Shown: piece by piece, positions 9,061 to 32,375 of the stretch
How positions within the stretch are numbered: the stretch's first letter is position 1
Layout of the letters: every line of letters starts with the position of its first letter
NCBI GenBank assembly: GCA_050011875.1
Contig: JBEKIG010000001.1
Span: 32,001-96,000 of the forward strand
Origin: Nitrososphaeria archaeon
GTDB taxonomy: Archaea > Thermoproteota > Nitrososphaeria > JACIWG01
Reading direction: 5' to 3'
DNA: 64,000 bases
Translations under genes and position numbers: made by a program
The notes under the pieces: model-generated
Told to the model about the DNA's origin: nothing
The model's database searches: none
What the model saw: the letters and a program-made list of their open reading frames with translations, nothing else

Positions 9061-9304
9061 CATGATATTTTATAGCAATCTCTTTGTGCTGAGATTTGAT
9101 ATCATGTATACTAAGATCGGTAACCTAAACCACCACCTCTAGTGCATGATAAACTTAGTCCTTCATTACTAATATAAATGATAGGAGGTAGTATCTATAA
9201 GAGGAGTAGCTGGTAAAAGCAATAGATCATCGATAACAAGCCCTTTGTAGTAGTCTTCTGAAGTTCGAGAGAAGATAAGACTGTTCAATTCAACCTATGA
9301 GACC

Positions 9305-9673
9305 TTGCAACAGCTGAAGAATTCCTTCAAACTTGGAATAGTCTCAGACTGCCAAGTAGACTACGCTATACCAGAACTCAAAATACTTGAAGTTCATGAC
9401 TTTTTCGATTCAATAATCATTTCAGGAGACTACGGCTTTCGAAAACCTGATACGAGACTTTTTAACCAATGTCTTTCAAACCTATGGGTTTCAAACAATG
9501 ACGTGATATTCGTCGGGAACGATTTCTTCAGGGACATAAACAGAGCAAAGTCTGCTGGTTTAAGAACAGTACTGTTTGGAGACCAAAAAAGACCTTTTGA
9601 TAGAACATTGCCAGAGCCAGAATTTAGAATCAATCGACTTTTCCAGCTATGGGACGTCATCCAAAGATTGTAA
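9305..9673 (+). pseudogene. HAD-superfamily hydrolase, C-terminal part only
   Basis: LGIVSD, RKPD and FVGND..RDI motifs present; motif I (DxD) region absent. Confidence 0.7.
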
Positions 9674-9890
9674 CCATGAAAAAGGTAATCCGATAATCAA
9701 AACATCTCCAAAAAAAGTTTAGAAGAAAAAGTGTTTGCCAACTTGCTTGCTTAAATGTAGCTAGTGTCACGCTCTTTTTATGTGAAGATATTACTATGCT
9801 TAAGCAGTAAAGTTAGAAGGGCGTTTTCAAGCGCGCGAGCGCGTGACTATTTTAAAGAAGAAACACAGAACATAGTGGGTGGTGTGGAGA

Positions 9891-10271
9891 ATGGAGTTCA
9901 TATACACTGGTATTCGTGTCAAAGACCTAGATCGTTCAGTGGAGTTTTACACGAAGACAATGGGCATGAAAGAAGTGCGCAGAGGAAAAATGGAGGCGGG
10001 GGGAATCTGGGTAGAACTGAAAAGCAAGAATTCAGATCATCCGCTTGAGTTGAACTATTATCCGCCGGGAAGCAGGTTCTATGAGATGTATGTTGAAGGC
10101 TCAGAGTTAGATCACTTAGCGTTCGCATGCGATGACGTTCGAAAAAGCTACAAGAAAGCACTCGCAGGAGGTGCCACAGCGGCCATTGAGCCTTGGGATG
10201 AAGGCGGATCTACTCTGGCTTTTGTGAGAGATCCAAGCGGCGTCTGGATCGAACTGCATAGCAGAACCTAG
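9891..10271 (+). CDS. VOC / glyoxalase family protein
   Basis: GIRVKDLDRSVEFYT, DHLAF and FVRDPSGVWIEL. Confidence 0.88.
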   Translation: MEFIYTGIRVKDLDRSVEFYTKTMGMKEVRRGKMEAGGIWVELKSKNSDHPLELNYYPPGSRFYEMYVEGSELDHLAFACDDVRKSYKKALAGGATAAIEPWDEGGSTLAFVRDPSGVWIELHSRT

Positions 10272-10820
10272 CGCGCATTGTATAACATCACTGAGTTGAT
10301 ATCAGATGGTAGACAAGCAAGATTTCAAGAAAACGATAGTGCTATTTAACAAAAGTATTATATGATAGCAGGAACTCAAAATGTCTTAAACTCATTGAGT
10401 TGTTTGAATACATTCATGTCGGTCGCCCCTAATGATTCAATATTTTCTGTAGCAAGCATAAAAATCTCTTTTGTAATACACTTAGCTCGAGATCCTATTG
10501 TTAATTTTTGTGCGACTTGGGCAAGGTATGCAAAAGAGATAATCAGTGCCATAGGAAACCAAATAAGCTCGTCGTTCGTGATCTTACCATCAAAAATACA
10601 TTTCTTCCTGAATATTTAAAAGATGTCTCCTACTTTTGCCTTCTTGATTAATTCAATTCTCGAGCATCCTCCACAAAAAAGCAATTATCTTTAATTTGAC
10701 TGAATATAATGATTCAAAATGCCAGCCAGTAATCAATATTTCTGCCTTTTTATAACATAATGCTCTTTAAAGTGTTTAAAGTTTATAATTAGAGTACTTT
10801 TTTAGATGAGGGCTGATGGA

Positions 10821-10880
10821 AGGATTCAAAGCGTGACAGGCTTCAACAACAGTCTGAAGGTCGATTGGATCCCAAATGAA
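10821..10880 (+). pseudogene. Relic paralogous to the gene at 19119-19490
   Basis: RIQSVTGFNNSLKVDWIPNE versus RLQSLTGLNGNLKVNWIPDG. Confidence 0.7.
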
Positions 10881-11002
10881 TTGCATTACGTTGAACATTT
10901 GCATGCATTTATCTATTTATATCTTGCTACTATTGGCTTAGCTATTACTGTTTATTGTGGTACTGCCTTTTTCTGCGTCTGGTGCTTCTTTCTTCTAGCT
11001 GT

Positions 11003-11713
11003 TTATGCGTAACCTTCTGTTATGGAAGCATTTTTTTCTCTTCTAATTAGCCTGCTTGACAAAATCAACAATACAATTGACAGCGCACCAACTACGCCAG
11101 CAATAAGCAGCTCAATTAAGACACCGATAAAAAACGGTAAAATATAAGCAAGTAGGAAAGTGTGAAAGACAATCCACGAGCCAAGCATTAAAGCAAGAGG
11201 ACTATTGGCACCTACTCTCTGCTTTTGTAACGAGCTGAAAGCAACCATAGCAACTGTAACAAAAGAGACGACTGAGAAACCTAACGCGGCAGTGACAGCT
11301 AACACCACTAAACCTAAAATGATGGTAACTTGTGTTCCTATAACCACACTTATTACGACATTGACTGTAAATTCGGCAATGAAAATAGTAAGCGCCAAGA
11401 AGAGCGCGGCTTTTAAGTAACGCTTAAAGATGTCGCCTTGATTCCACCCAAGCGAAAGCAAGTACTCTAAAACACCGTTATTTTTGTCATAAACATACAG
11501 CAGAATAACAGGCATTGCGAAAAGAAGAATTCCCAGAACCAAAGGCGTAACAGAAGCAAGCGCGACCCTGCCATTTACAAGGACATTTATAGTTAAAACG
11601 TTGCCGAAATTTAATACCAAGATCCCAATGGAAGCAAGAACAATCCCCATTACATATTGTATTTTGTTTAAACTGAGGCTTCGCTTAGCAAAAGTTAATG
11701 CACTATTTGGCAA
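11003..11713 (-). CDS. ABC exporter membrane subunit
   Basis: Multi-TM ORF with DKNNGVLEYLLS motif; likely TTG start at 11713 overlapping the ATPase stop. Confidence 0.75.
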   Translation of the reverse strand: MPNSALTFAKRSLSLNKIQYVMGIVLASIGILVLNFGNVLTINVLVNGRVALASVTPLVLGILLFAMPVILLYVYDKNNGVLEYLLSLGWNQGDIFKRYLKAALFLALTIFIAEFTVNVVISVVIGTQVTIILGLVVLAVTAALGFSVVSFVTVAMVAFSSLQKQRVGANSPLALMLGSWIVFHTFLLAYILPFFIGVLIELLIAGVVGALSIVLLILSSRLIRREKNASITEGYA

Positions 11714-12599
11714 TTTGCTGTGACTCCTTTTGAGTTTTTTCCACATTTCTTTTGGGTATCTCGAAAAGTTCTTGCAACGGATTATCAAGCTGACGCATTT
11801 CAGTGACCAAAACACCATTTTCAACCAATTTTCTTAAAGCAAGCCCTGCTTCCTCAGGGCTAGACACATTCAAAACAAAGTAATCGCCCTCACCACGTCG
11901 GGCATCTATAATCTTAGATATGTCCGTTGAGGCTTTAATGCCTACTCGGTACTGTTTCGGTTTAATGTTTGAGATTTTATCAAACAATGTTACCGAACCA
12001 TTCTTGATCAGAATCAGGTAAGTTCCAATGTCAGTTGCTTCATAGAGGTTATGTGAAGAGTACAAAATCATTTTGTTCTTACTTAATTTTAGGATAATAT
12101 CTCGAATTTCCTTTGAAATTGACGGGTCTAAATTCGCAGTGGGTTCGTCCAACAAATACAAATCTCTCTCGAAAAGAAACACTTTTGCAATGGCAGCTCT
12201 CTTTTTTTGTCCTTGCGAAAGGTCAGAGAACCTTTTATTTTTCAGTTGACCAAGGTCCAGCAGATCAATCACTTCGTCTGGATCTCCGCCTTCTATATCA
12301 GAGTAAAACTTAAGCGCGTTATACACAGTCATCTCTTCAGGCATTGCATTGTACTGTGAGAGATAGCTTATTTTTGTTCTCGCCTTGCCTGATGTGGTTA
12401 TGTTTTGGTCGTCGAAAAGAATCTTGCCGCTAAATGGCTCTAGTATGCCAGCGATTGTTCTAAACAATGTTGTCTTGCCTGCGCCGTTTGGTCCTAAAAC
12501 AACGTATATTGACGGCTCTTTCAGTTTAAAGCTGATATCGTGCAAAACGGCTTGCCCATTGTAACCAGAAGTTACGTTATTCAATTCCAAAACATGCAC
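11703..12599 (-). CDS. ABC exporter ATP-binding subunit
   Basis: GPNGAGKTT, LSQGQ, LLDEP and SSH switch. Confidence 0.92.
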   Translation of the reverse strand: MHVLELNNVTSGYNGQAVLHDISFKLKEPSIYVVLGPNGAGKTTLFRTIAGILEPFSGKILFDDQNITTSGKARTKISYLSQYNAMPEEMTVYNALKFYSDIEGGDPDEVIDLLDLGQLKNKRFSDLSQGQKKRAAIAKVFLFERDLYLLDEPTANLDPSISKEIRDIILKLSKNKMILYSSHNLYEATDIGTYLILIKNGSVTLFDKISNIKPKQYRVGIKASTDISKIIDARRGEGDYFVLNVSSPEEAGLALRKLVENGVLVTEMRQLDNPLQELFEIPKRNVEKTQKESQQIAK

Positions 12600-12666
12600 T
12601 TCTAATTCACCTCATTTATTCAGGGATAATTTTAAAAATCTCCTCCTTTGGAACACTCATCAAACA

Positions 12667-12804
12667 TTAAACTTGTAGACAAACCGTGCGCCCTATGAGG
12701 GAGATAACAACGATTGCAAGAGTGGCTAGTAGAGCAAGCACCTTACGACCATAACGAGGATCAAACTTGTCTGAAGCTCTAGCTGAAGTTGAAATTTGTT
12801 CCAT
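12667..12804 (-). pseudogene. N-terminal relic of an MFS-type transporter
   Basis: MEQ...KFDPRYGRKVLALLATLAIVV gives one TM segment, then the frame ends; divergent from the regulator. Confidence 0.45.
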
Positions 12805-12917
12805 GCTTTTTTTCACTCCACGTAATTCCATGATGCAAAGCCACCGGATTAAGGTTATAGCGAGCATATTCGCCTTTTTACACAAACTTATTTATTGTAC
12901 CAAATCAATTTCTATTT

Positions 12918-13643
12918 ATGCGCAGGATCGTTTTAGAGTGGTCAATAAAAGACCTAGAAAACCTAAAGGGCGTTGACAAATCTGGGGTAGAATTTTCGAA
13001 TCAGGAAATAAAGTCACTTGGGATACAGCGGGGTTTAAAGATGCTTGAGATGCTACAAAAGACAAAGTCGTTTGAGGTGCTGCACATTCTCAGAACTGAT
13101 CAAGACGAATTCGCATACATATTCAAGGTAGAAACCAAAGACCCTTCTTTCAACATTAAAGACCTATTATTAGAGTTGGTTCATGGCACCGAGGTCAAAC
13201 TGCAGCTTCTACAGCAGGAAAAGGAAGGAACTCGTACCTACTTCATCAAGGGAAAGCTTCCCCATCCAAGTCCTGAAACAAACAGCAAAAGAATTAATAT
13301 GTATCCACTCTTGCCATTTAGTTTCAGAGATGGAAAAGTTAGGGTTGCTTTGCTTGGAGATAATAACCAAGTGGAAGAGTTCCTTGAATTTGTCGAAAAA
13401 GCAGGGACTTTTAGGGTGGTTTCGCTTATGGATGCGAAGTTTTTGCCTAGTTCACCAGTTAACCGCTTAACTGGAAAACAACGAGATGCCATTATCTTAG
13501 CATTCAAACTTGGGTACTTCGATACGCCTCGGAAGATAAGTTCAGAGCAGCTTGCAACGAAGCTGGGTCTTGCTAGTTCCACTTTGGCAATACATCTAAG
13601 GAGAGCCGAACGCCGCTTACTCGCTGAGATGTTAAACGAATAA
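12918..13643 (+). CDS. Bacterio-opsin-activator-type (HTH_10) transcriptional regulator
   Basis: C-terminal LTGKQRDAIILAFKLGYFDTPRKISSEQLATKLGLASSTLAIHLRRAERRL. Confidence 0.9.
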   Translation: MRRIVLEWSIKDLENLKGVDKSGVEFSNQEIKSLGIQRGLKMLEMLQKTKSFEVLHILRTDQDEFAYIFKVETKDPSFNIKDLLLELVHGTEVKLQLLQQEKEGTRTYFIKGKLPHPSPETNSKRINMYPLLPFSFRDGKVRVALLGDNNQVEEFLEFVEKAGTFRVVSLMDAKFLPSSPVNRLTGKQRDAIILAFKLGYFDTPRKISSEQLATKLGLASSTLAIHLRRAERRLLAEMLNE

Positions 13644-13834
13644 CACCTAGCTAGCCACCTGACCAATCAAAGGGATTTCTCGCATTTTCTATATCTACTT
13701 TTATATAGATCTGACAGGATCCAGTATTCGAAATTATACCTCTTTTTCCATAAGTAATAATCTTTGATCTCATTTAATAACGCTACAAGTTAGTAATCAT
13801 AAGAATTTTATACGACGATGTTTCCTATTCTTTT

Positions 13835-16800
13835 GTGCTCCAGACCCGTTTACCCGTTATCCAAGTATCATCTGAAAAGAAAGAAAATCTTGACAAGAAA
13901 TTGGATGAAATTTATCAGAACATAAAGAACAGATTCAAGGTTTTTGGAACATTCCAAGACGTGTTAACCAATTCAGCAAACTATTCTTCATCTAATTTAA
14001 AGGATGAACAGGCTCCAGAAGAATTCACAAAAAGAACTATCATAGAACCGTTAATCGATTTACTAGGTTTTGAGATAGTCCCTGAAACAGTCTTACCCTC
14101 ACCCGGTGGAAGAAAAGAACCAGATTACATAATCAGGCCTAAAAACCAACAAAGCCCTGTCTTCTATATGGAGGCCGAACCACTGAATACAGATCTTCAT
14201 AGTAAAGGAAAAGGCGTCTGGCAAGTAAACGACTGGTTACTATCAAGGGCTTCAAAAACTGATTACGGTATAGCCACTGATGGATTCACATGGATATTGC
14301 TCAAATTTGACATCGTTTCAGCTCAAAGTAAGGAAGTCTTAAAGGTGAATTTAAGTACTATTTTAATTAGAAAGCTGAATCCAACCGCATTTATTAGTGA
14401 TGATGACATAGAAAGAGCGAAGTCAGACTTTTTGACTTTTGATTGTGAATACATTTCCCATTTCCTTGAAGGTTATTTAGAAATTATCGAGAAAGAAAAG
14501 GAAGAGATATCGAAAAGATTTTACAGCGACTACGTGAGATATGTCTTTGGATACGACGAAGCTGGAAACGCCATTAAGGGCGTAAGCTTGTTTAACAAAG
14601 TTGTACCTCCATCTGCAACTAATGACAATGATATGAAGTTGTTTTCTGTTATATTCATGAACAGGATAATGTTCATCAGATTTCTTGAAGAAAAAAGAAT
14701 AGTGCCAAAGGACCTTTTGAAGAATTTGATGGACAGGTATAAGTCATCTGGAACTCCAAGCACTTTTTATGATACGTATCTGAAGCCTCTTTTCTATGAT
14801 GTCTTTAACAAGGGCAAAGAAAGTAGGCCCTCTGCGGTGAAAAGCAACCCATTTTATGCCCAGATTCCCTATTTAAATGGTGGCCTGTTCAGAGAGGTAG
14901 TCGGGAACGAAGGGAACTATACCATAGAAAATGAGGGCGTACAGCTTGTTATAGAAAATCTTCTGGAAAAATATAGCTTCGGCCTAGATTCTGGAATAAA
15001 TCCAGACATATTGGGTTATATCTTCGAAAAGACAATCAACTTCATTTCAGGGACAGGAACTAACCAACAGAAGATGGAGGGAGCTTACTACACCCCTGAT
15101 GACGTAGTAGAATTCATAATAGATCAAACATTGACTCCAATCATTTTTAACAAGATGATCGAAGGCTTGAAAAAAGCTGGGTGGAATGATGTAGATCTGA
15201 AGGGTTACAATTCAATAGAGGATATTATGGATCCACAGAATATTCCGAAGAATCCGATTCATATTAAGAAGATGATTGAGTCGCTTGAGACGATTAAAGT
15301 ACTGGATCCCGCTTGTGGTTCAGGCCACTTTCTAACTGCTATGCTTTCACAGATCCTCCGGGTCAAAGAAGATTTACTGATTACTATTAAAGAGAATATT
15401 GAAAGATATAAATTAAAAAGAGACATTATTTCGCAAAACCTGTTCGGAGTCGACATCGACAAAAACGCTGTTGAAATAGCTCGGTTGAGGCTATGGCTTT
15501 CGATAATAGAGGAAGTTGAAGACCCTCAACATGTTGACACCCTCCCCAACATTGATTTCAATATCTTCGTAGGAAATAGTCTGATTGGCTGGTTTGATGA
15601 AAATCTTTTGATGCATCCTTTAGTTGGTTTATTGGACGATCCTGACGTGCAAAGTACACTTCATAGCCTTGGTGCGTCCTATGGGACCAAAATAGATGAA
15701 GTTGAGGAACGCCTTCGAAAAAATCGCTTGGATGACACAATTGAGGCCTATAGAACACTTTCAGAGATATACGCTTCAGAATCAGGAGAACGAGCTGTAA
15801 AGATAAGAGAAATATTGGAAAATATCAGGAATAAATTATATGAAGTAATAAATCGTTCCTATCTTGATTTTATTAATCGAAAAGGTAATCTAAATAAAAA
15901 GATATTCTATGAGTTAGGGAAGAACATTTCTAATAGAATGCCTTTTCACTGGAGAATTGATTTCGAACATATAATTAAAGAGGGAGGCTTTGATACAATT
16001 GTTGGAAATCCGCCATATATAGAAGATAGAAATTACAACATGATCGATCTTGAAATTATAAAGTGTATGAGAAAGGGGAAGAAAAAAGTCGTAGAACCCC
16101 TTTTCTTTTATTCAATAAGTTGTGGAAATACGTATGCCTACTTTATCGAAAGATCGATTGAACTGTTAAAACAAAATGGTAAATTTGGATTCATAGTTCC
16201 TATTGCCCTCGTATCCACTGATAGAATGGATGATGTAAGAGAAATTATTTATAAAAATTCATCTGAAGTTAAATACTACAATTTCGATGACCGCCCGGGC
16301 AAAATATTCAGTGGAATAGAAGATTGTAGGTCAACGATCGTAATAACGAAAAAAGGAACTGGAGTAGATAAAATAACTACGAGTAAATACCACAGATGGT
16401 ACACAAGAGATAGACCAAAAGTATTCAAAAATCTCCAAACAAGCGATTGGTATATCGTGGATCCCAAAGGAATCGTACCAAAAATAGGCACCAACATTGA
16501 GAAGGCTATACTGAACAAACTCGATCAGAAATCAAAGGGTAAAACAGTGGAGAACTTTGTAGAAGATATCGGTGTCAAAATATGGTATCATAATGCACCA
16601 CGATATTGGATTCACGCTCATCCAGAGAATTACTTACCATCTGTCGAATATTATGAAAACTATGAAACAAATACTGACACTGGCGAGGTTGTACTAAATA
16701 ACCTAAAGGAAAAGCAAATATCATCACATTACAAGCCTTTGATCTTTGCGAAGGAAAGTTTTGATGGCATCCTTGGTCTACTTAACAGTTCTTTGTTCTA

Positions 16801-17137
16801 CTGGTGGTTCATTGTCTGGTCTGACGGAAGGGACCTCTTGGCAGATCATATACACAGTTTTCCGATAGATATAAAGAACTTCCCTGACAATTTTAAAGAA
16901 AAACTCAAACTATTGGTAAATGGTTTGATGGAAAATTATGATAAAACATCTAACATCAAAATAAACGTGAGATCTGGTGGATATGCTATAAAGATAAAGG
17001 AGATAATTCCATCCAAGTCAAAGAATATCATCGATCAGATTGATGAAATATTTGCAGATTACTTTGGATTCACAGAAGATGAAAGAAAATTCATCAGGGA
17101 ATTCGACATAGAATTCAGAATAAAAAGTGAGTCATAA
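13835..17137 (+). CDS. Type IIG (Eco57I-like) restriction-modification fusion: nuclease, N6-adenine MTase and TRD
   Basis: N-terminal PDY...EAE and IATDG; YLNGGLF; GAYYTP; VLDPACGSGHF (motif I); GNPPY (motif IV); LLNSSL in the TRD. Confidence 0.9.
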   Translation: MLQTRLPVIQVSSEKKENLDKKLDEIYQNIKNRFKVFGTFQDVLTNSANYSSSNLKDEQAPEEFTKRTIIEPLIDLLGFEIVPETVLPSPGGRKEPDYIIRPKNQQSPVFYMEAEPLNTDLHSKGKGVWQVNDWLLSRASKTDYGIATDGFTWILLKFDIVSAQSKEVLKVNLSTILIRKLNPTAFISDDDIERAKSDFLTFDCEYISHFLEGYLEIIEKEKEEISKRFYSDYVRYVFGYDEAGNAIKGVSLFNKVVPPSATNDNDMKLFSVIFMNRIMFIRFLEEKRIVPKDLLKNLMDRYKSSGTPSTFYDTYLKPLFYDVFNKGKESRPSAVKSNPFYAQIPYLNGGLFREVVGNEGNYTIENEGVQLVIENLLEKYSFGLDSGINPDILGYIFEKTINFISGTGTNQQKMEGAYYTPDDVVEFIIDQTLTPIIFNKMIEGLKKAGWNDVDLKGYNSIEDIMDPQNIPKNPIHIKKMIESLETIKVLDPACGSGHFLTAMLSQILRVKEDLLITIKENIERYKLKRDIISQNLFGVDIDKNAVEIARLRLWLSIIEEVEDPQHVDTLPNIDFNIFVGNSLIGWFDENLLMHPLVGLLDDPDVQSTLHSLGASYGTKIDEVEERLRKNRLDDTIEAYRTLSEIYASESGERAVKIREILENIRNKLYEVINRSYLDFINRKGNLNKKIFYELGKNISNRMPFHWRIDFEHIIKEGGFDTIVGNPPYIEDRNYNMIDLEIIKCMRKGKKKVVEPLFFYSISCGNTYAYFIERSIELLKQNGKFGFIVPIALVSTDRMDDVREIIYKNSSEVKYYNFDDRPGKIFSGIEDCRSTIVITKKGTGVDKITTSKYHRWYTRDRPKVFKNLQTSDWYIVDPKGIVPKIGTNIEKAILNKLDQKSKGKTVENFVEDIGVKIWYHNAPRYWIHAHPENYLPSVEYYENYETNTDTGEVVLNNLKEKQISSHYKPLIFAKESFDGILGLLNSSLFYWWFIVWSDGRDLLADHIHSFPIDIKNFPDNFKEKLKLLVNGLMENYDKTSNIKINVRSGGYAIKIKEIIPSKSKNIIDQIDEIFADYFGFTEDERKFIREFDIEFRIKSES

Positions 17138-17347
17138 TTTTGCACTAATACGCCACTTTGCTACTCTTTTCTTGTAGACGTCAATCGTTTTGATACTTTC
17201 CCCGCTTTCCTTTCTAAAGCTAGATTATGTCAGATACAATATGGATCTACCAGTTGATAGACAGGCTGTGGAAAGTGCTTGACTTGTCCGGGGCAATACT
17301 TATTATACTAAATTTGCGTCATAAATTTAGCGGTAAAAACAAAGAAT

Positions 17348-17791
17348 TTGATTTACTGCTTTCTTCCATTAATTTCAGCAATGATATCTAATGTGATATT
17401 CTTGCTCCTCGCAAAGGCAGGAATGCGGTCAATGGGAGCTTCGGGTATAGACTATGGAATATTGGGGATAATTCTTGCAAACGTGTTAATGAATAGCACT
17501 TCTGGTGTAGAGTTTTATTTTCGAAAAATGTGCCGTGCTATTGTAGACAAATACAAACTACGTTTAACCATAATGAATTTAATTTATATTTTGAGCATCG
17601 CATTGTACTTAACTCTTCTCATTGCGATAGTGGGTTCCATCATTTCTCAACCATCAGATTTTCTAAACCTAAAACAAGGTGTAAACCCGATTGCGCACGC
17701 ATTCAGTTTTATGATCTCGTTTGCTGTATACCTTTTTATTGGTTTCAAGTATAGTAAGAGCCAAGTGATTAAGACATCTTTTTCGGCCTAA
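17348..17791 (+). pseudogene. Rhomboid-like intramembrane serine protease, 5'-truncated
   Basis: Hydrophobic ORF with GASG and NPIAH motifs; only 147 aa with a TTG start. Confidence 0.55.
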
Positions 17792-18076
17792 TGATGACTA
17801 TCCTATTGCCTCAAAAATCTGTCCATTGTTAAGAACCGCTATTATCTGCACAATACCAACAGGGTAAACGGTTTAGGGTGAGCCTTACCCTAAAAATAGA
17901 AAAGCAAGCCGGACATGAAAGCAAATATGCCTCTAAAGCGTCAAAAAAGGCGATTTTTATAGCTCTAAAATCGTCAACATGAGAGGGGGCTTGTCATTTT
18001 CTAAGGAATTTTGGGGGGGAACCGTGCGTGTATAATTAATTATAATATAAACCATTAAAATAATAGAATATTAGAT

Positions 18077-18655
18077 TTTGCTCGAACGGTGTCCCATTAT
18101 GTAATAATGGGACACCGACTGATGCAACATTATAGAATTATGTTGCATCGCTTTAAATAATAGAGCAAACATTCGTCATTTACCGAATATGTATTTATCG
18201 GTAATCAGTTAAATATGAGACAGAGGCTGACAAAAAAGGTAGCAAGCGCGAGTTGCCTATTATAAATTTATAGGTAACTCATTAAAGATGAGACAGAGGC
18301 TAAACAATAACGATAGAAAAATTGGACTTAATCCTTCCATATGTTATTTACCCAAGGAGATATAACTGACAAACGTAAGTCGTAAGGAATAATGTTCTTA
18401 TACGTAGCTACCTAGCGTTTGGCGTAATAATCGCTACTGCTCTGAACGACTCCTTGGCTCACACGACGTATCTGGAAGCACCGATATTAAAACAATGAAA
18501 GCATTTTATAATGCATCAAAAAGCGATGCAAAACCCTAATTGGCCTAACTGCGGAATAAGCATCAAAGTAATATTGTTAATGCCATGGCAGAAGACGGTA
18601 ATGAAAGGATTATTGCCAAAGTTTGATAAATAAACCTATCAAGATATGTCAAACC
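18077..18655 (+). ncRNA. Candidate structured non-coding RNA or structured ssDNA element
   Basis: No long ORF; dense nested and serial inverted repeats, several with G-T pairs on the + strand; AT-rich TATA-like tract at 18031-18050 upstream. Confidence 0.45.
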
Positions 18656-18731
18656 ATGGAGAAAAGTTAGGTTTTAGACAGATATCCTCTGGTTATACAT
18701 GCAAAAAGTTATATAATAAAATGGGTAAGTT

Positions 18732-18770
18732 TTATAAACCCACCCACCCCCTTATAAACCAACCCCACCC
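18732..18770. repeat. 20-bp tandem duplication, TTATAAACC plus C-rich tail
   Basis: TTATAAACCCACCCACCCCC followed by TTATAAACCAACCCCACCC. Confidence 0.75.
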
Positions 18771-18939
18771 GCCTGAGACCCGCCGTCCACGAGCAAGTTG
18801 GCCTAAAGGTGTGATCTACAATATGAGAAAGGAAAGAGAGCTGTTGGATTTAGTTGGGGATGGTTATGAGTAGAACCGTTGATATAACAGTGATTAAAGA
18901 TTTTGCGATACAACAGGTTTTCTACGGAGATGTTAGCAA

Positions 18940-19122
18940 ATGAAGCACTACCTAATACGCGTGATAAAATATTGTTGGAACCCACTTACAAAAAGCGTGC
19001 AGCAAAAGCCCGTAGCCAGCAAAAGCATTTCCATGCCCAAAGACCTAGATGCTAACACCATAAAAAATGTTCTGAACCTATTGACAAAGGAACTTTCCAC
19101 GCAAAAAGTTGATGAACAATGA
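18940..19122 (+). CDS. Small hypothetical protein (60 aa)
   Basis: GGAG upstream; ATGA overlap with the next ORF suggests translational coupling. Confidence 0.5.
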   Translation: MKHYLIRVIKYCWNPLTKSVQQKPVASKSISMPKDLDANTIKNVLNLLTKELSTQKVDEQ

Positions 19123-19490
19123 TAAAGTCCAAGGATCTCTCTAAGGCCCACAAGACAGGAGAGGAAGAGCAGGACGTTCAAATTGAGCTCGAAAGGGAGC
19201 TGAGCAGACTTCAGAGCTTAACGGGCCTAAACGGTAATCTAAAGGTCAATTGGATCCCGGATGGAAGCAGAGAGGTTCACGGTGAAGTCATAAGCGACGT
19301 AATCCACGTCTACGATGAAGACTTGGAGGAAGCGATTCGAACCCTAAAACACGAGTTCGTAGACTACTGTATAACAAGGGAAGTTGTCACACCTCTTGTC
19401 GACCTCGTGAACGCCTTGATAAAGAGCAGGGAAGCTGAAGTCTACAGGAGAAAGGAGAAGTTGGTAGAACTCTTTTCAAGCCTTATATAA
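19119..19490 (+). CDS. Hypothetical zincin-like protein (HExxD variant)
   Basis: HGEV...IHVYD...TLKHEFVDY; decayed paralogues elsewhere in the window support that it is a real gene. Confidence 0.65.
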   Translation: MIKSKDLSKAHKTGEEEQDVQIELERELSRLQSLTGLNGNLKVNWIPDGSREVHGEVISDVIHVYDEDLEEAIRTLKHEFVDYCITREVVTPLVDLVNALIKSREAEVYRRKEKLVELFSSLI

Positions 19491-19687
19491 ACCGTACTTC
19501 TCATAGAGACTATAAGAAAGCTGAATGATTACATATTAGATAAATCATGAATAATACTAAGAGTCATTATTAGAAAGAAGTCTTAATCACGTGTTCTTAC
19601 CATACCTTTGACATGTTCGGTTCTTTTGCCTCTCAAAGCTAGGTTAAAAGTTTAAATCATTTTCTTTTAATTTATTACTGTCAAATT

Positions 19688-20332
19688 ATGCGCATGGAAG
19701 TAAGGTTAGAGGTTGACGAAAATTTTCAGGAATTTGCCAGAAAAATTGGTAAATCACCTAAAGAGGTTCTCCAGCAACTGTCTGAGACCATCTGGCTTGC
19801 ACGTCTTCCTTTGACAGAGAGGCTTAAGAACGGTGTGGATCTTCGAGCCTCTTTGCTTGAGACATACGATTTAGCAGAACTGGGATGGCGAATAGACGAC
19901 TATATAAGAAAAGCACTTGAATTGAAGGTTGATGAATTTGTTCTAGACGACAGCGAAGTTAATCTTGAAGACCAGCACTATTTTCTTGCTTATTCTGCTA
20001 ATTCGAACTCCAATGGGAAAGTATCGTCGGTATACGTTATATTAGATAAAGGATCAGCAGAACTGATTTGTGACGGATGCGTTGAGGAAAAACAATTGCT
20101 ATCCAAAATAAAAGCAGTTACGGAAGATCTTGATGAACACTATGACACTTTTGGAAAACTGGACGGATTTAGTGAACTGATGGATAGTGACCACGAATTC
20201 AATTTTGAAGAAGAGGATGAGCCACCGTATAATTATTCGCTCACAGTAAATGCAGACGAACTAGGATACCTACCAACCGTATCCCAAATCTCAAAATTGT
20301 TCAGCAAGATAGAAGAGATAGCGTCAACGTAG
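19688..20332 (+). CDS. Acidic hypothetical protein with a possible N-terminal ribbon-helix-helix
   Basis: MEVRLEVDENFQEFARKIGKSPKEVLQQL shows an alternating strand plus two helices. Confidence 0.6.
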   Translation: MRMEVRLEVDENFQEFARKIGKSPKEVLQQLSETIWLARLPLTERLKNGVDLRASLLETYDLAELGWRIDDYIRKALELKVDEFVLDDSEVNLEDQHYFLAYSANSNSNGKVSSVYVILDKGSAELICDGCVEEKQLLSKIKAVTEDLDEHYDTFGKLDGFSELMDSDHEFNFEEEDEPPYNYSLTVNADELGYLPTVSQISKLFSKIEEIAST

Positions 20333-20655
20333 AAGGTATAGACCTCATTTGTTTCCTCCTTTAATTTCAACTGAATTTCAGGTGAACAATACACGAACCA
20401 TTGGTTCTATCAATCACGTCCATGGTCATCACCACATCTCGACCCCAGTAATTCTTATTTCCTATCCTTGAGTACAAAAGATAGCTTTCCATAATGGTTA
20501 TTTCGCGGTATTCTGTTTTACAAAAAGGTTTTAAAATATCAGACTATTTTTTTTCCACTTCCACTTTTGTCGATTTCAAAATGGATAATCAAGAATAAAT
20601 CTGATGTGTGAAGTGGGATTTCAATACTAATCTACTGGTAAATTATTAGATTCAA

Positions 20656-20696
20656 GTTCGGTGGGGTTTCTGACCTTAATTAAGTGCAGATACCTA
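20656..20696 (-). repeat. att-like arm plus core, inverted copy of 38079-38118
   Basis: Reverse complement TAGGTATCTGCACTTAATTAAGGTCAGAAACCCCACCGAAC versus TAGGTATCTGCACCTAATTATGGTCGAAAACCACCGGAC; about 35 of 41 identical by eye. Confidence 0.8.
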
Positions 20697-21094
20697 ATGA
20701 AATTTATGTTTAACCGTTATATTATAATTAGGTTTTGTTGAAATTTTTGATTTAATTATAATAACAGTCAACTGTAGGTTTGCTACCTTAAAATCATAAT
20801 CTTAACAGTTTAAGCAATTTTATGGGGGTCTATCTTGAAAAAGTTAACCATGACATTTTTAATTATTTAGTCTCTTAATTTAGTGGTTTGAAGGTGTATA
20901 TAATTAATGGCATTCTGTCTCCTATTCTGGAAAATTGTAGCCAGAGTCGGATGGAATGAATCAATAATAAATTCAACTTTACGTTTTTCTGAATGCGTCG
21001 TTAATATAAGATGTACAGTTACACTTCGATAATTTTTATGTTTAGAATCTTAAAAGCCTGCCTTAAACATTCTGAGTAGTCATAAATTGAAAAG

Positions 21095-24594: not shown

Positions 24595-24669
24595 AAGTTC
24601 TATAGGAGAAAGGAGAAACTGGTAGACCTCTTTTCAAGCCTAATATAAACCGCAATTCTCATAGGGACT
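24595..24669 (+). pseudogene. 3'-end relic of the 19119-19490 gene with its downstream flank
   Basis: YRRKEKLVDLFSSLI* plus ACCGCAATTCTCATAGGGACT versus YRRKEKLVELFSSLI* plus ACCGTACTTCTCATAGAGACT. Confidence 0.85.
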
Positions 24670-31475: not shown

Positions 31476-32375
31476 ATGATATATATGGCGACCAAGAAAA
31501 GTTGGTTTCCCTACGCAATGATTTCTGTCGCAGTAATAGTTAGCATGGTTATGAACGTTTATCCTTTGTTACTCGCTATATTTATGAGCTTTCAGAACTT
31601 TGTCGGCAGTTCGAATCATTTCGTAGGATTGTATAATTATATCAGTGTTCTTACAGATCCGACTTTTTGGTTCGTTTTCGAAGTGACAATAGTATGGACA
31701 ATATTAGTTGTATCATTCTCTGGTCTTTTGGGACTTGGTACCGCTTTACTTTTAAATGAAGAATACAGATTTAGGGGTATAGTAAGGAGCATTATCATAA
31801 TACCCTGGGTTGCGCCACCTGTTGTAATCGCATATATTTGGGTCTGGATATATTCTGCTGGATTCAGCCCAATTAGCGATTTCCTTGAGAGAGTACATTT
31901 AATAAGTGGGCCAATATATTGGCTTAGTGACCTATCTATTAAAGTAGGTCCCCTCTCGTTTCCTCTTCTCTCACTTGTTCTAGTAGGAGTTTGGGCTGGG
32001 TTTCCATTCGTAGCTGTTGTCTTCTTGGCCGCTCTACAAAGTATTCCACGTGAAGTCTTGGACGCCGCAGATATAGATAGCGCTTCCAGCTGGCAAAAGT
32101 TCAGGCATATAACATTACCATTAATTGCAAAGGTAGGCCAGATAAGTATATTACTTAGTACTATATGGACCTTCAATCAATTTGTTTACCCCTACTTGAT
32201 GACTAAAGGGGGCCCTTTGAATTTTACCGATGTTTTATCAGTCTTTATCTACCAAAAGGCGTTCACAGATTTTAATTTTGGATATGCCACCGCTGCAGCA
32301 GTCGTAATGACAACTTTCTCAGGAATTTTCGTTGCATTATACATAATCTCCAGCTATAGGAGTCTGTTTGAATAA
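31476..32375 (+). CDS. Carbohydrate ABC permease (MalF-like)
   Basis: FVGLYNY, IIPWVAP and EAA-type loop LDAADIDSASSWQKFRHITLP. Confidence 0.92.
   Translation: MIYMATKKSWFPYAMISVAVIVSMVMNVYPLLLAIFMSFQNFVGSSNHFVGLYNYISVLTDPTFWFVFEVTIVWTILVVSFSGLLGLGTALLLNEEYRFRGIVRSIIIIPWVAPPVVIAYIWVWIYSAGFSPISDFLERVHLISGPIYWLSDLSIKVGPLSFPLLSLVLVGVWAGFPFVAVVFLAALQSIPREVLDAADIDSASSWQKFRHITLPLIAKVGQISILLSTIWTFNQFVYPYLMTKGGPLNFTDVLSVFIYQKAFTDFNFGYATAAAVVMTTFSGIFVALYIISSYRSLFE

Follow-up and report, generated by a model that had tools for sequence, protein, structure and literature searches.

The DNA considered here is a window of 64,000 nt (positions 32001–96000 of the contig designated C1; other contigs are numbered likewise) from the 2.64-Mb genome (40.8% GC) of an uncultured Nitrososphaeria archaeon of peat. 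Positions given without a contig name refer to this window. Between a rhomboid-like frame on one side and a pair of overlapping genes for proteins of 60 and 123 amino acids (aa) on the other, the window contains a 1.15-kb stretch without credible genes, and within this stretch lies an array of palindromes. An initial annotation, made from the sequence alone, had described four palindromes with 13-nt centres, a box that recurs after the third and fourth of them, and a pair of complementary heptamers around the first two. All of these elements are present: the palindromes, H1 to H4, lie within 18087–18305, and each carries an AT-rich 13-nt centre. Together with further copies and remnants, the array comprises the following features, in which the palindromes are given no strand.

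18055–18067, + strand: box a (TTAAAATAATAGA), a TTAAA-type box upstream of H1, a direct repeat of box b (13 nt, 92%, spacing 97).
18077–18083 and 18163–18169, no strand: TTTGCTC and GAGCAAA, a 7-bp outer inverted repeat that encloses H1 and H2.
18087–18117, no strand: H1, 9-bp arms around the 13-nt centre ATTATGTAATAAT; fully self-paired, with 14 perfect pairs and a 3-nt loop, GTA.
18121–18149, no strand: H2, 8-bp arms around the centre ATTATAGAATTAT, with an optional T·G pair at 18120/18150.
18152–18164, + strand: box b, a decayed copy of the conserved box after H2 (18153), its ATG lost.
18180–18204, no strand: H3, 6-bp arms (TTACCG/CGGTAA) around the centre AATATGTATTTAT.
18209–18228, + strand: box c (TTAAATATGAGACAGAGGCT), with an ATG at 18215, 29 nt past the start of the H3 centre, and a 16-codon frame.
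18250–18280, no strand: H4, 9-bp arms around the centre ATTATAAATTTAT, with one G·T pair (18255/18275) that is valid on the + strand only.
18282–18301, + strand: box d (TTAAAGATGAGACAGAGGCT), with an ATG at 18288, 29 nt past the start of the H4 centre, and a 25-codon frame.
18338–18375, + strand: a sixth unit with an internal deletion, consisting of a copy of the 5´ flank and arm of H3 followed by CTGACAAA (78% repeat).
18503–18531, no strand: H5, a rearranged copy of the right half of H2.

The conserved box, TTAAAnATGAGACAGAGGCT, starts at 18209 and 18282, with a period of 73 nt and 23 nt from the start of the preceding centre (H3 and H4), and the distance from centre to box is fixed across three units (H2, H3 and H4). 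The centre-to-centre periods are 33 (H1–H2), 57 and 73 nt. The short frames between the modules span 12 to 25 codons, without any sizeable gene, and those of boxes c and d have just MRQRL (five codons) in common. A repeat search returned H1 and H2 as inverted repeats of 14 nt (100%) and 13 nt (92%), respectively. The hairpin of H5 (TGCATC-7 nt-GATGCA, 18512–18530) reuses an arm of H2, being composed of a direct copy (18506–18517) and an inverted copy of the H2 arm with its flank (18520–18531, 12/12). The outer heptamers had been noted as able to close H1 and H2 into one multibranched structure; their sequences are there, but the helix forms in the minimum-energy fold of the − strand and is absent from that of the + strand.

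The palindrome array is confirmed as real and beyond chance; it is statistically solid and unusual-looking. The 261-nt array stretch folds on the + strand at −78.7 kcal/mol, compared with −44.6 ± 4.7 in 200 dinucleotide shuffles (z −7.3), and the − strand gives z −6.6 against the same number of shuffles. Comparison with shuffled sequences was a control suggested in the initial annotation, and none of the 200 folded as well on either strand. Taken singly, the hairpins give DNA folds with z-scores of −9.0 (H1, −14.7 kcal/mol), −5.7 (H2), −2.7 (H3) and −4.4 (H4). The genome has 20 occurrences of the centre motif AWTATRNAWTWAT, with arms of at least 5 pairs at the array copies only; the 16 occurrences elsewhere are all without arms. 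A covariance model built from the four hairpins finds, at E < 0.2, these four alone in the genome. Palindromes with arms of at least 11 number 51 genome-wide, and two of them adjoin each other in the array. Weak hairpins (6-bp arms, 13-nt spacer) are common, with 989 in the genome and about ten other genomic windows containing three, so the signal of the array lies in long arms combined with a shared centre and not in hairpin density alone.

The copies have diverged unevenly. H3 and H4 are diverged duplicates (TTACCG/CGGTAA versus TTGCCT/AGGTAA), and units 3 and 4 differ at 2/21 positions of linker and box and 3/13 of the centre, compared with 8/18 of the arms and 13/21 of the 3´ spacer. The contrast between the box and the arms plus spacer (2/21 versus 21/39) is significant (Fisher p 0.008), which points to constraint on the sequence of both box and centre, and to constraint on the arms only through their pairing. 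Although 8 of the 18 arm positions changed between H3 and H4, no pair was broken, and the H4 stem exceeds that of H3 by 3 bp through five clustered changes. Across the four copies, both partners have changed in 8 of 13 pairs, and pairing holds in 88.5% of cells, compared with 66.7% for shuffled sequences, a count that is circular in that the structure was derived from these same paralogous sequences. Outside the box, the units are 40–60% diverged. The arms had been described as unrelated yet self-complementary; pairing is indeed kept, but the relationship between H3 and H4 shows that the arms are not all unrelated. Selection on folded structure, as proposed in the initial annotation, agrees with stems that keep their pairing through change, but template switching during replication gives the same pattern (PMC8794818).

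Searches for relatives place the array as an orphan, a single locus in a decaying accessory region. Rfam at gathering thresholds gives 0 matches in the window, and the three sub-threshold matches (15.8–17.9 bits against thresholds of 34–100) are chance ones, in agreement with the initial annotation, which recognised no known family. The hairpin covariance model has 0 matches in 9 other genomes of the order and a single weak one (E 0.008) in 150 genomes of the class, in scans whose sensitivity is limited by the scoring of 48–150 first-look candidates per genome. A pattern of two centres, run over 400 genomes of the class, returns many AT-rich matches at about the rate of the reversed control; in the 32 two-centre loci inspected (30 returned and 2 fetched, with 329 others left), arms of more than 5 bp are found only in the window. 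The box pattern has 0 matches in viral contigs and four in metagenome contigs, one 100% identical to the window and belonging to the same population, and three chance matches in coding DNA. A BLAST search of the array against phages and plasmids gave no match. This DNA is present in peat metagenomes, with one Joint Genome Institute contig 100% identical over 11.9 kb, while a strain about 94% identical (run X4) covers 18291–18563 and 18702–18919, with no contig over the hairpins. The frames after boxes c and d have no homologues, and no gene of the genome starts with MRQRL. It had been suggested that homologous loci be collected through the neighbouring genes; however, no upstream hairpin array was found at the sister-species locus of the 123-aa gene, nor any similar array at the loci of distant homologues of the 214-aa gene that follows it. 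With no relative found for a comparison of covariation across species, the case rests on internal evidence.

The anatomy of the array, its uniqueness, its uneven conservation and its spacing are observed, as is the occurrence of TATA-in-palindrome promoters in this genome; that the modules act as promoters, where their transcripts would end and what the stems might do are inferred. The preferred reading, put forward tentatively and with less than even confidence, is that the array may be a set of stacked, gene-less promoter-in-stem-loop cassettes, an archaeal analogue of the promoter-early stem-loop (PeSL) cassettes of phages. Repeated copying would have built a local stack from one short non-coding module, with at least five or six copies that are now differently decayed. 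Each module would be a DNA palindrome whose 13-bp AT-rich core serves, or used to serve, as an archaeal promoter core resembling a TATA box; in the H2, H3 and H4 units, three of six copies, this core would be followed, at a fixed distance, by the conserved 20-bp box with a predicted transcription start and ATG. The centre would be constant because it is read as sequence (TATA-binding protein on its TATA box), and the box because it holds the start site and the 5´ end of a short transcript. The arms would be free to vary while pairing, as an RNA stem-loop in read-through from the previous unit; alternatively, their palindromy may merely be kept up by replication template switching. The gene-less stack could then be what is left of small transcription units that collapsed, or else a group of tiny units that do not code for protein. 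The promoter-module reading would account for the constant centre, the conserved box, the placing of that box by its distance to the centre rather than to the stem base, and the free arms.

The spacing and composition of the modules can be compared with the promoters of the genome, which are of a type with an A-rich B recognition element (BRE) and TTTAAATA-type boxes 25–40 nt upstream of start codons. TATA hexamers (TTTATA, TAAATA, TTATAT, TTAAAT) are most frequent 25–40 nt before ATGs in this genome, and such words occur in the H4 centre and in boxes a to c. The 29 nt from the start of the AT-rich centre to the ATG of the box form a putative TATA-to-start spacing. In the two intact units, 3 and 4, the midpoint of the palindrome lies 23 nt before the ATG; transcription that begins 26 nt from that midpoint would start on the GAGACAG of the box. 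Elsewhere, the genome has real promoters in which a TATA-like core is enclosed by a perfect palindrome:

C4:145760–145788: a palindrome with 10-bp arms around the TATA-like TTTATATAA, 35 nt before a 398-aa frame.
C9:62507–62534: a perfect palindrome with a TATA-like core, 35 nt before a 356-aa frame.

The arms GCTATG...CATAGC around TTTATATAA are shared by C4:145760–145788 and C31:5996–6016, which suggests an operator of one regulator overlapping the TATA box. These TATA-overlapping palindromic operators (C4:145760, C31:5996 and C9:62507) resemble the array in their AT-rich TATA-like core, perfect inverted repeats and promoter-length distance to a start; in them, however, the arms are conserved and a real gene lies at 35 nt, whereas in the array the centre is constant, the arms differ and mini-frames lie at 23 nt. 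Among the 297 hairpins with an AT-rich centre, 18 lie 20–50 nt upstream of a long frame, compared with 8.6 ± 2.7 for random positions.

Arbiol et al. (2010; PMC2839356) describe the PeSLs of T4-type phages as cassettes in which promoter boxes overlap variable stem-loops with G–T pairs, which end at the start codon and which crowd in hyperplastic regions. Measured against that description, the array shares short gene-less modules in a hypervariable region, variable stem-loops tolerating G–T, and a start codon that closes the module at a set distance from the putative core (29 nt in units 3 and 4, decayed in unit 2); a host-type promoter core that overlaps or abuts the stem-loop would be a further likeness. 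According to the same paper, PeSLs have sigma-70 boxes and many dispersed copies flanking real small genes, with promoter and terminator activity demonstrated. The array differs from that account in that its core would be an archaeal TATA box, in forming a single stack in a cellular genome with no genes between the copies, and in being without dispersed copies; no exchange between modules was seen in the array, although the region varies with respect to the sister species.

Several observations weigh against the promoter-module reading. The enrichment of hairpins upstream of frames is merely two-fold, and intergenic bias alone may account for it. The centres hold TATA-type words, but the A-rich BRE is missing and neither centres nor boxes exceed 8.0 bits on a matrix of the genome's own promoters, on which a site at 18703 reaches 12.0; these low scores arise because GC-rich arms occupy the position of the BRE. 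A clear AAAAGTTTAAATCA precedes the 214-aa gene, unlike the poorly scoring centres of the array. The box is intact in units 3 and 4 only and H1 is without one, and the short frames share no more than five codons and have no homologues. No T-runs follow the hairpins, and archaeal termination depends on T-runs, so a PeSL-like terminator role is unsupported; hairpins are not known to act as archaeal terminators. Finally, an orthologous array was not found in the genomes searched, and there is one stack only.

In a stronger version, which is decidedly unlikely, the modules would be tandem mini-genes, each stem-loop serving as the DNA TATA element of the next unit and as a protective 3´ RNA stem-loop of the previous transcript. 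This would yield a family of RNAs of about 60–70 nt with a common 5´ seed, GAGACAGAGGCU, that differ downstream, and it would explain together the constant centre, the paired but free arms, the centre-fixed box and the tandem layout.

It is possible, though doubtful, that the array is a neutral by-product, in which template switching during replication, seeded by short AT-rich stretches of decaying non-coding DNA, made and re-perfected quasi-palindromes that have neither function nor reader. Template switching, as described by Monttinen and Loytynoja (2022; PMC8794818; see also PMC13100816), creates and maintains hairpins and mimics compensatory change, and its products resemble the array in their perfect stems, multi-base 'compensatory' changes and inverted copy of arm and flank; it is a mutational mechanism, not a functional class, and alone leaves the conserved centre and box unexplained. 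A neutral origin is consistent with an array that is single-copy, absent upstream of the sister-species 123-aa gene, not found in the 9 genomes of the order or the 150 of the class, and bordered on one side by a truncated paralogous segment and on the other by the relic of a gene. The right arm of H2 and its flank appear again at a distance of 365 nt, inverted and without mismatch over 12 nt, beside a direct copy, giving a new hairpin; the 3-bp extension of H4 (five clustered changes) is simpler as one template switch than as five point mutations; and the perfection of all arms suggests recent events. What neutrality does not predict is that arms and spacer have diverged far more than box (2/21) and centre (3/13), and the one 13-nt centre common to four hairpins, with 16 armless occurrences elsewhere, and the fixed centre-to-box distance in three units likewise count against it. 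In a further reading, an unlikely one and the main idea of the initial annotation, the stretch would be one + strand non-coding RNA or long leader with four or five serial stem-loops bearing the same AU-rich loop. This RNA would either capture a factor that binds the loop, as a decoy or sponge, or be processed into units through cleavage in the conserved linker. A layout of constant loop and variable stem recalls the CsrB/RsmZ-type sponges. The very strong + strand fold (z −7.3) and the 8 of 13 pairs changed on both sides favour an RNA, as do the wobbles G18255·T18275 and T18120·G18150, which pair on the + strand only, and the flanking genes from 13835 to 20332, all on the + strand; moreover, a weak promoter-like site at box a (18048–18063, 7.7 bits on the own-genome matrix) has a predicted start at about 18083, some 4 nt before H1. 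However, the − strand folds nearly as well (z −6.6) and H3 gains two wobbles there, the covariation is circular, being counted among the paralogues that defined the structure, and the collections searched, Rfam included, yielded no relatives. The highest-scoring promoter is 3´ of the array, and no sign of RNA binding comes from the neighbouring proteins, which are without Pfam or PHROGs matches, the 123-aa one having only a weak minigluzincin-like fold match.

Protein binding to duplex DNA is an improbable explanation. A dimeric protein would read the pseudo-symmetric core ATTAT-N3-ATAAT at four phased sites, the candidates being the 214-aa protein, whose N-terminus looks ribbon-helix-helix-like, or an HTH_10 regulator encoded in the same island. 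The core is a 13-bp near-palindrome, a typical operator size, the centres of H1 and H2 are 33 bp apart (about three helical turns), and the genome has promoter-overlapping palindromes with conserved arms, such as the GCTATG...CATAGC pair of loci mentioned above. Nevertheless, the self-complementarity of unrelated outer arms is left unexplained, the spacings of 57 and 73 bp are not phased, and the ribbon-helix-helix reading was made by eye on a protein with a mean predicted local distance difference test score (pLDDT) of 38 and blank Pfam results for 14 members of its family. Still less probable, to the point of being very improbable, are single-stranded DNA sites for a recombinase, a transposase or a rolling-circle Rep, whether attC-like, IS200/IS605-like, REP-like or a nick site within a loop. 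The combination of variable stems and a conserved unpaired centre does recall attC sites and the origins of HUH enzymes, the genome encodes one IS200/IS605 Y1 transposase (C4:2009–2362), and the − strand loop of H1 fits, by eye, the CRESS-type nonanucleotide NANTATTAC. That fit is confined to H1, the Y1 gene is on another contig, and the end hairpins of its element (ATCCCAC...GTGGGAT and CCTACGAG...CTCGTAGG) are unrelated to the array. The initial annotation had placed the array in a mobile element with an integrase; no tyrosine or serine recombinase (PF00589 or PF00239) is encoded on this contig, the four PF00589 matches of the genome being on C6, C16 and C36, and the surroundings are those of a variable chromosomal island with relics. 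The attC-like sites it proposed are not borne out either, given perfect stems without bulged bases, no cassettes between the hairpins, no recombinase on the contig and no other copies in the genome. Pfam shows no HUH signature in the neighbours, and a Viral_Rep search was blank, as were its 14 controls, so that it carries no weight.

The comparison with attC sites can be carried further. These sites span 60–140 nt, are imperfect with bulged bases, carry R and L core boxes and occur one per cassette, next to intI. Both they and the array combine conserved geometry with variable self-pairing sequence, which suggests in each case that a folded single strand is read. The core boxes R''/R' are RYYYAAC/GTTRRRY; by eye, H2 (ATGCAAC/GTTGCAT) and H4 (AGGTAAC) come near but each fails at least one position, and H1 and H3 have nothing similar. 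The stems of the array are perfect (9, 8, 6 and 9 pairs, the sole departure being one G·T) and have no extrahelical bases, and its four hairpins follow one another within 194 bp without cassette-size frames, on a contig, C1, from which PF00589 is absent.

Among families of dispersed palindromes, the bacterial repetitive extragenic palindromes (REP) and bacterial interspersed mosaic elements (BIME) and the archaeal palindrome-associated transposable elements (PATEs) are mobilised by REP-associated tyrosine transposases (RAYT) or IS200/IS605 Y1 transposases, and are each dispersed in tens to hundreds of copies that have their stem sequence in common. The array is like them in its clustered extragenic palindromes between genes of the same orientation, with a Y1 transposase in the genome, and unlike them in being a single locus (by regular expression and covariance model) with stems that differ from one another and from insertion sequence (IS) ends. 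The single complete IS200/IS605 element of the genome (C4:1890–3620) has about 50% GC and contains the Y1 transposase gene and a long second frame. About 90 nt past its right-end hairpin there is a 12-mer equal to the right arm of H1 plus flank, with a 9-mer equal to the start of box c 5 nt before it; the BLAST E of 0.07 means that this may be chance. Dispersed 38–39-nt hairpins with arms TTGAGCCGAA/TTCGGCTCAA and a 19–21-nt AT-rich loop also occur in this genome in at least five copies, and are unrelated to the array:

C7:53528–53566: dispersed-hairpin copy.
C10:12376–12414: dispersed-hairpin copy.
C11:21362–21400: dispersed-hairpin copy.
C11:118047–118280: dispersed-hairpin copies.

Repeat arrays of other kinds differ more. 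Clustered regularly interspaced short palindromic repeats (CRISPR) are near-identical direct repeats with unique spacers that are similar in length, whereas the repeats here are a 13-nt centre and a 20-nt box at periods of 33, 57 and 73 nt. In type III toxin–antitoxin systems (ToxI-like), an endoribonuclease toxin gene directly follows tandem repeats that are nearly identical; the units of the array are far more diverged (40–60% outside the box), and the downstream genes lie more than 640 nt off, have their own promoter and match nothing in Pfam or PHROGs.

Active modules would constitute the first counterpart in archaea of the promoter/stem-loop cassettes of phages, with a TATA box working inside a hairpin, tiny transcription units stacked compactly and, possibly, a source of new small RNAs. 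Should the modules be inert, the array would be a clean natural case of template switching that makes and maintains perfect hairpins mimicking compensatory evolution, and a caution for covariation-based RNA discovery. As the case rests on one peat population, its reach is limited in either event.

Most of 9061–20964 is without a counterpart in the sister species, where matching pieces are dispersed over several contigs, and the region is a variable chromosomal island with gene relics, the gene-less stretch being a patchwork. Its main features are these:

12918–13643: HTH_10 regulator, within the same island.
13835–17137, + strand: type IIG (Eco57I/MmeI-like) restriction-methylase gene, 1100 aa, 950 bp upstream of the array.
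17348–17791, + strand: rhomboid-like frame, on one side of the array.
17940–18047, + strand: left flank, an 82% paralogue of the intergenic segment C1:171240–171347, 121 kb off.
18411–18476, − strand: right flank, a frameshifted remnant of a paralogue of a 354-aa gene (C4:53340–53407), covering its last ~20 codons and its stop.
18703–18718, + strand: best canonical intergenic promoter (AAAAAGTTATATAATA), 12.0 bits, predicted start at about 18738.
18940–19490, + strand: 60-aa and 123-aa genes, overlapping by ATGA, on the other side of the array and followed by the 214-aa gene.

A six-frame search of 17780–18950 finds no protein relics beyond the two reported. The paralogous copy of the left flank at C1:171240–171347 terminates in its own AT-rich-centre hairpin, which is absent from the left flank at 18047. 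An attachment (att) site or insertion was considered for the break at 18047 and rejected, the missing right half being found nowhere else in the genome. A replication origin was likewise set aside, as the Cdc6 genes sit on other contigs; there is no tRNA gene in the window.

The promoter at 18703–18718, 3´ of the array, likely serves the 60-aa and 123-aa genes. It is contained in a 75-codon frame (18646–18873) that has two 1-nt indels in the related strain (run X4) and is probably not a gene. Eighty nucleotides past the rhomboid-like frame, a palindrome at 17872–17894 (TTTAGGGTGAG-C-CTTACCCTAAA, 11-bp arms with one mismatch) may mark the 3´ end of that frame; a T5 run lies downstream of it at about 17953. 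The last 180 nt of the restriction-methylase gene have an 87% copy at C11:117600–117779. At 20582–20724 and 20783–20959 there are non-coding repeats of 30–90 nt, with many copies on several contigs here and in the sister species, which may be similar to miniature inverted-repeat transposable elements or represent element ends.

No neighbouring protein is convincing as a reader of the hairpins. Partial or diverged copies of the 60-aa and 123-aa genes, separate from each other, are found both elsewhere in this genome and in the sister species, and the 3´ end of the 123-aa gene (19441–19511) is copied at 24599–24669 of the window. The 123-aa protein has 15 homologues and no Pfam match, and PHROGs, like Pfam, are blank for the 60-aa, 123-aa and 214-aa proteins. 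The structure model of the 123-aa protein (pLDDT 85) gives a weak Foldseek match to archaeal minigluzincin metallopeptidases (E 0.04–0.15), and its family has HEFxDY in the position of HExxH. The 214-aa gene has no close homologues and 16 distant ones, with matches in 5 of 200 other genomes of the class. Its single-sequence structure model is unusable, and a profile search against the PDB returned designed repeat proteins only.

One distant homologue of the 214-aa protein, in another Nitrososphaeria genome (G105:C3:153400–154400), has on either side a hairpin with 11-bp arms and a 13-nt loop, the two being unrelated but identical in geometry. In a genome congeneric with G105 (G103), the flanks are kept and the hairpin is absent. 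Upstream of the G105 homologue there are abundant GTGTCAC-type direct repeats and a ATCGTACA palindrome, and a PIN-domain gene and a weak RusA-like gene adjoin it.

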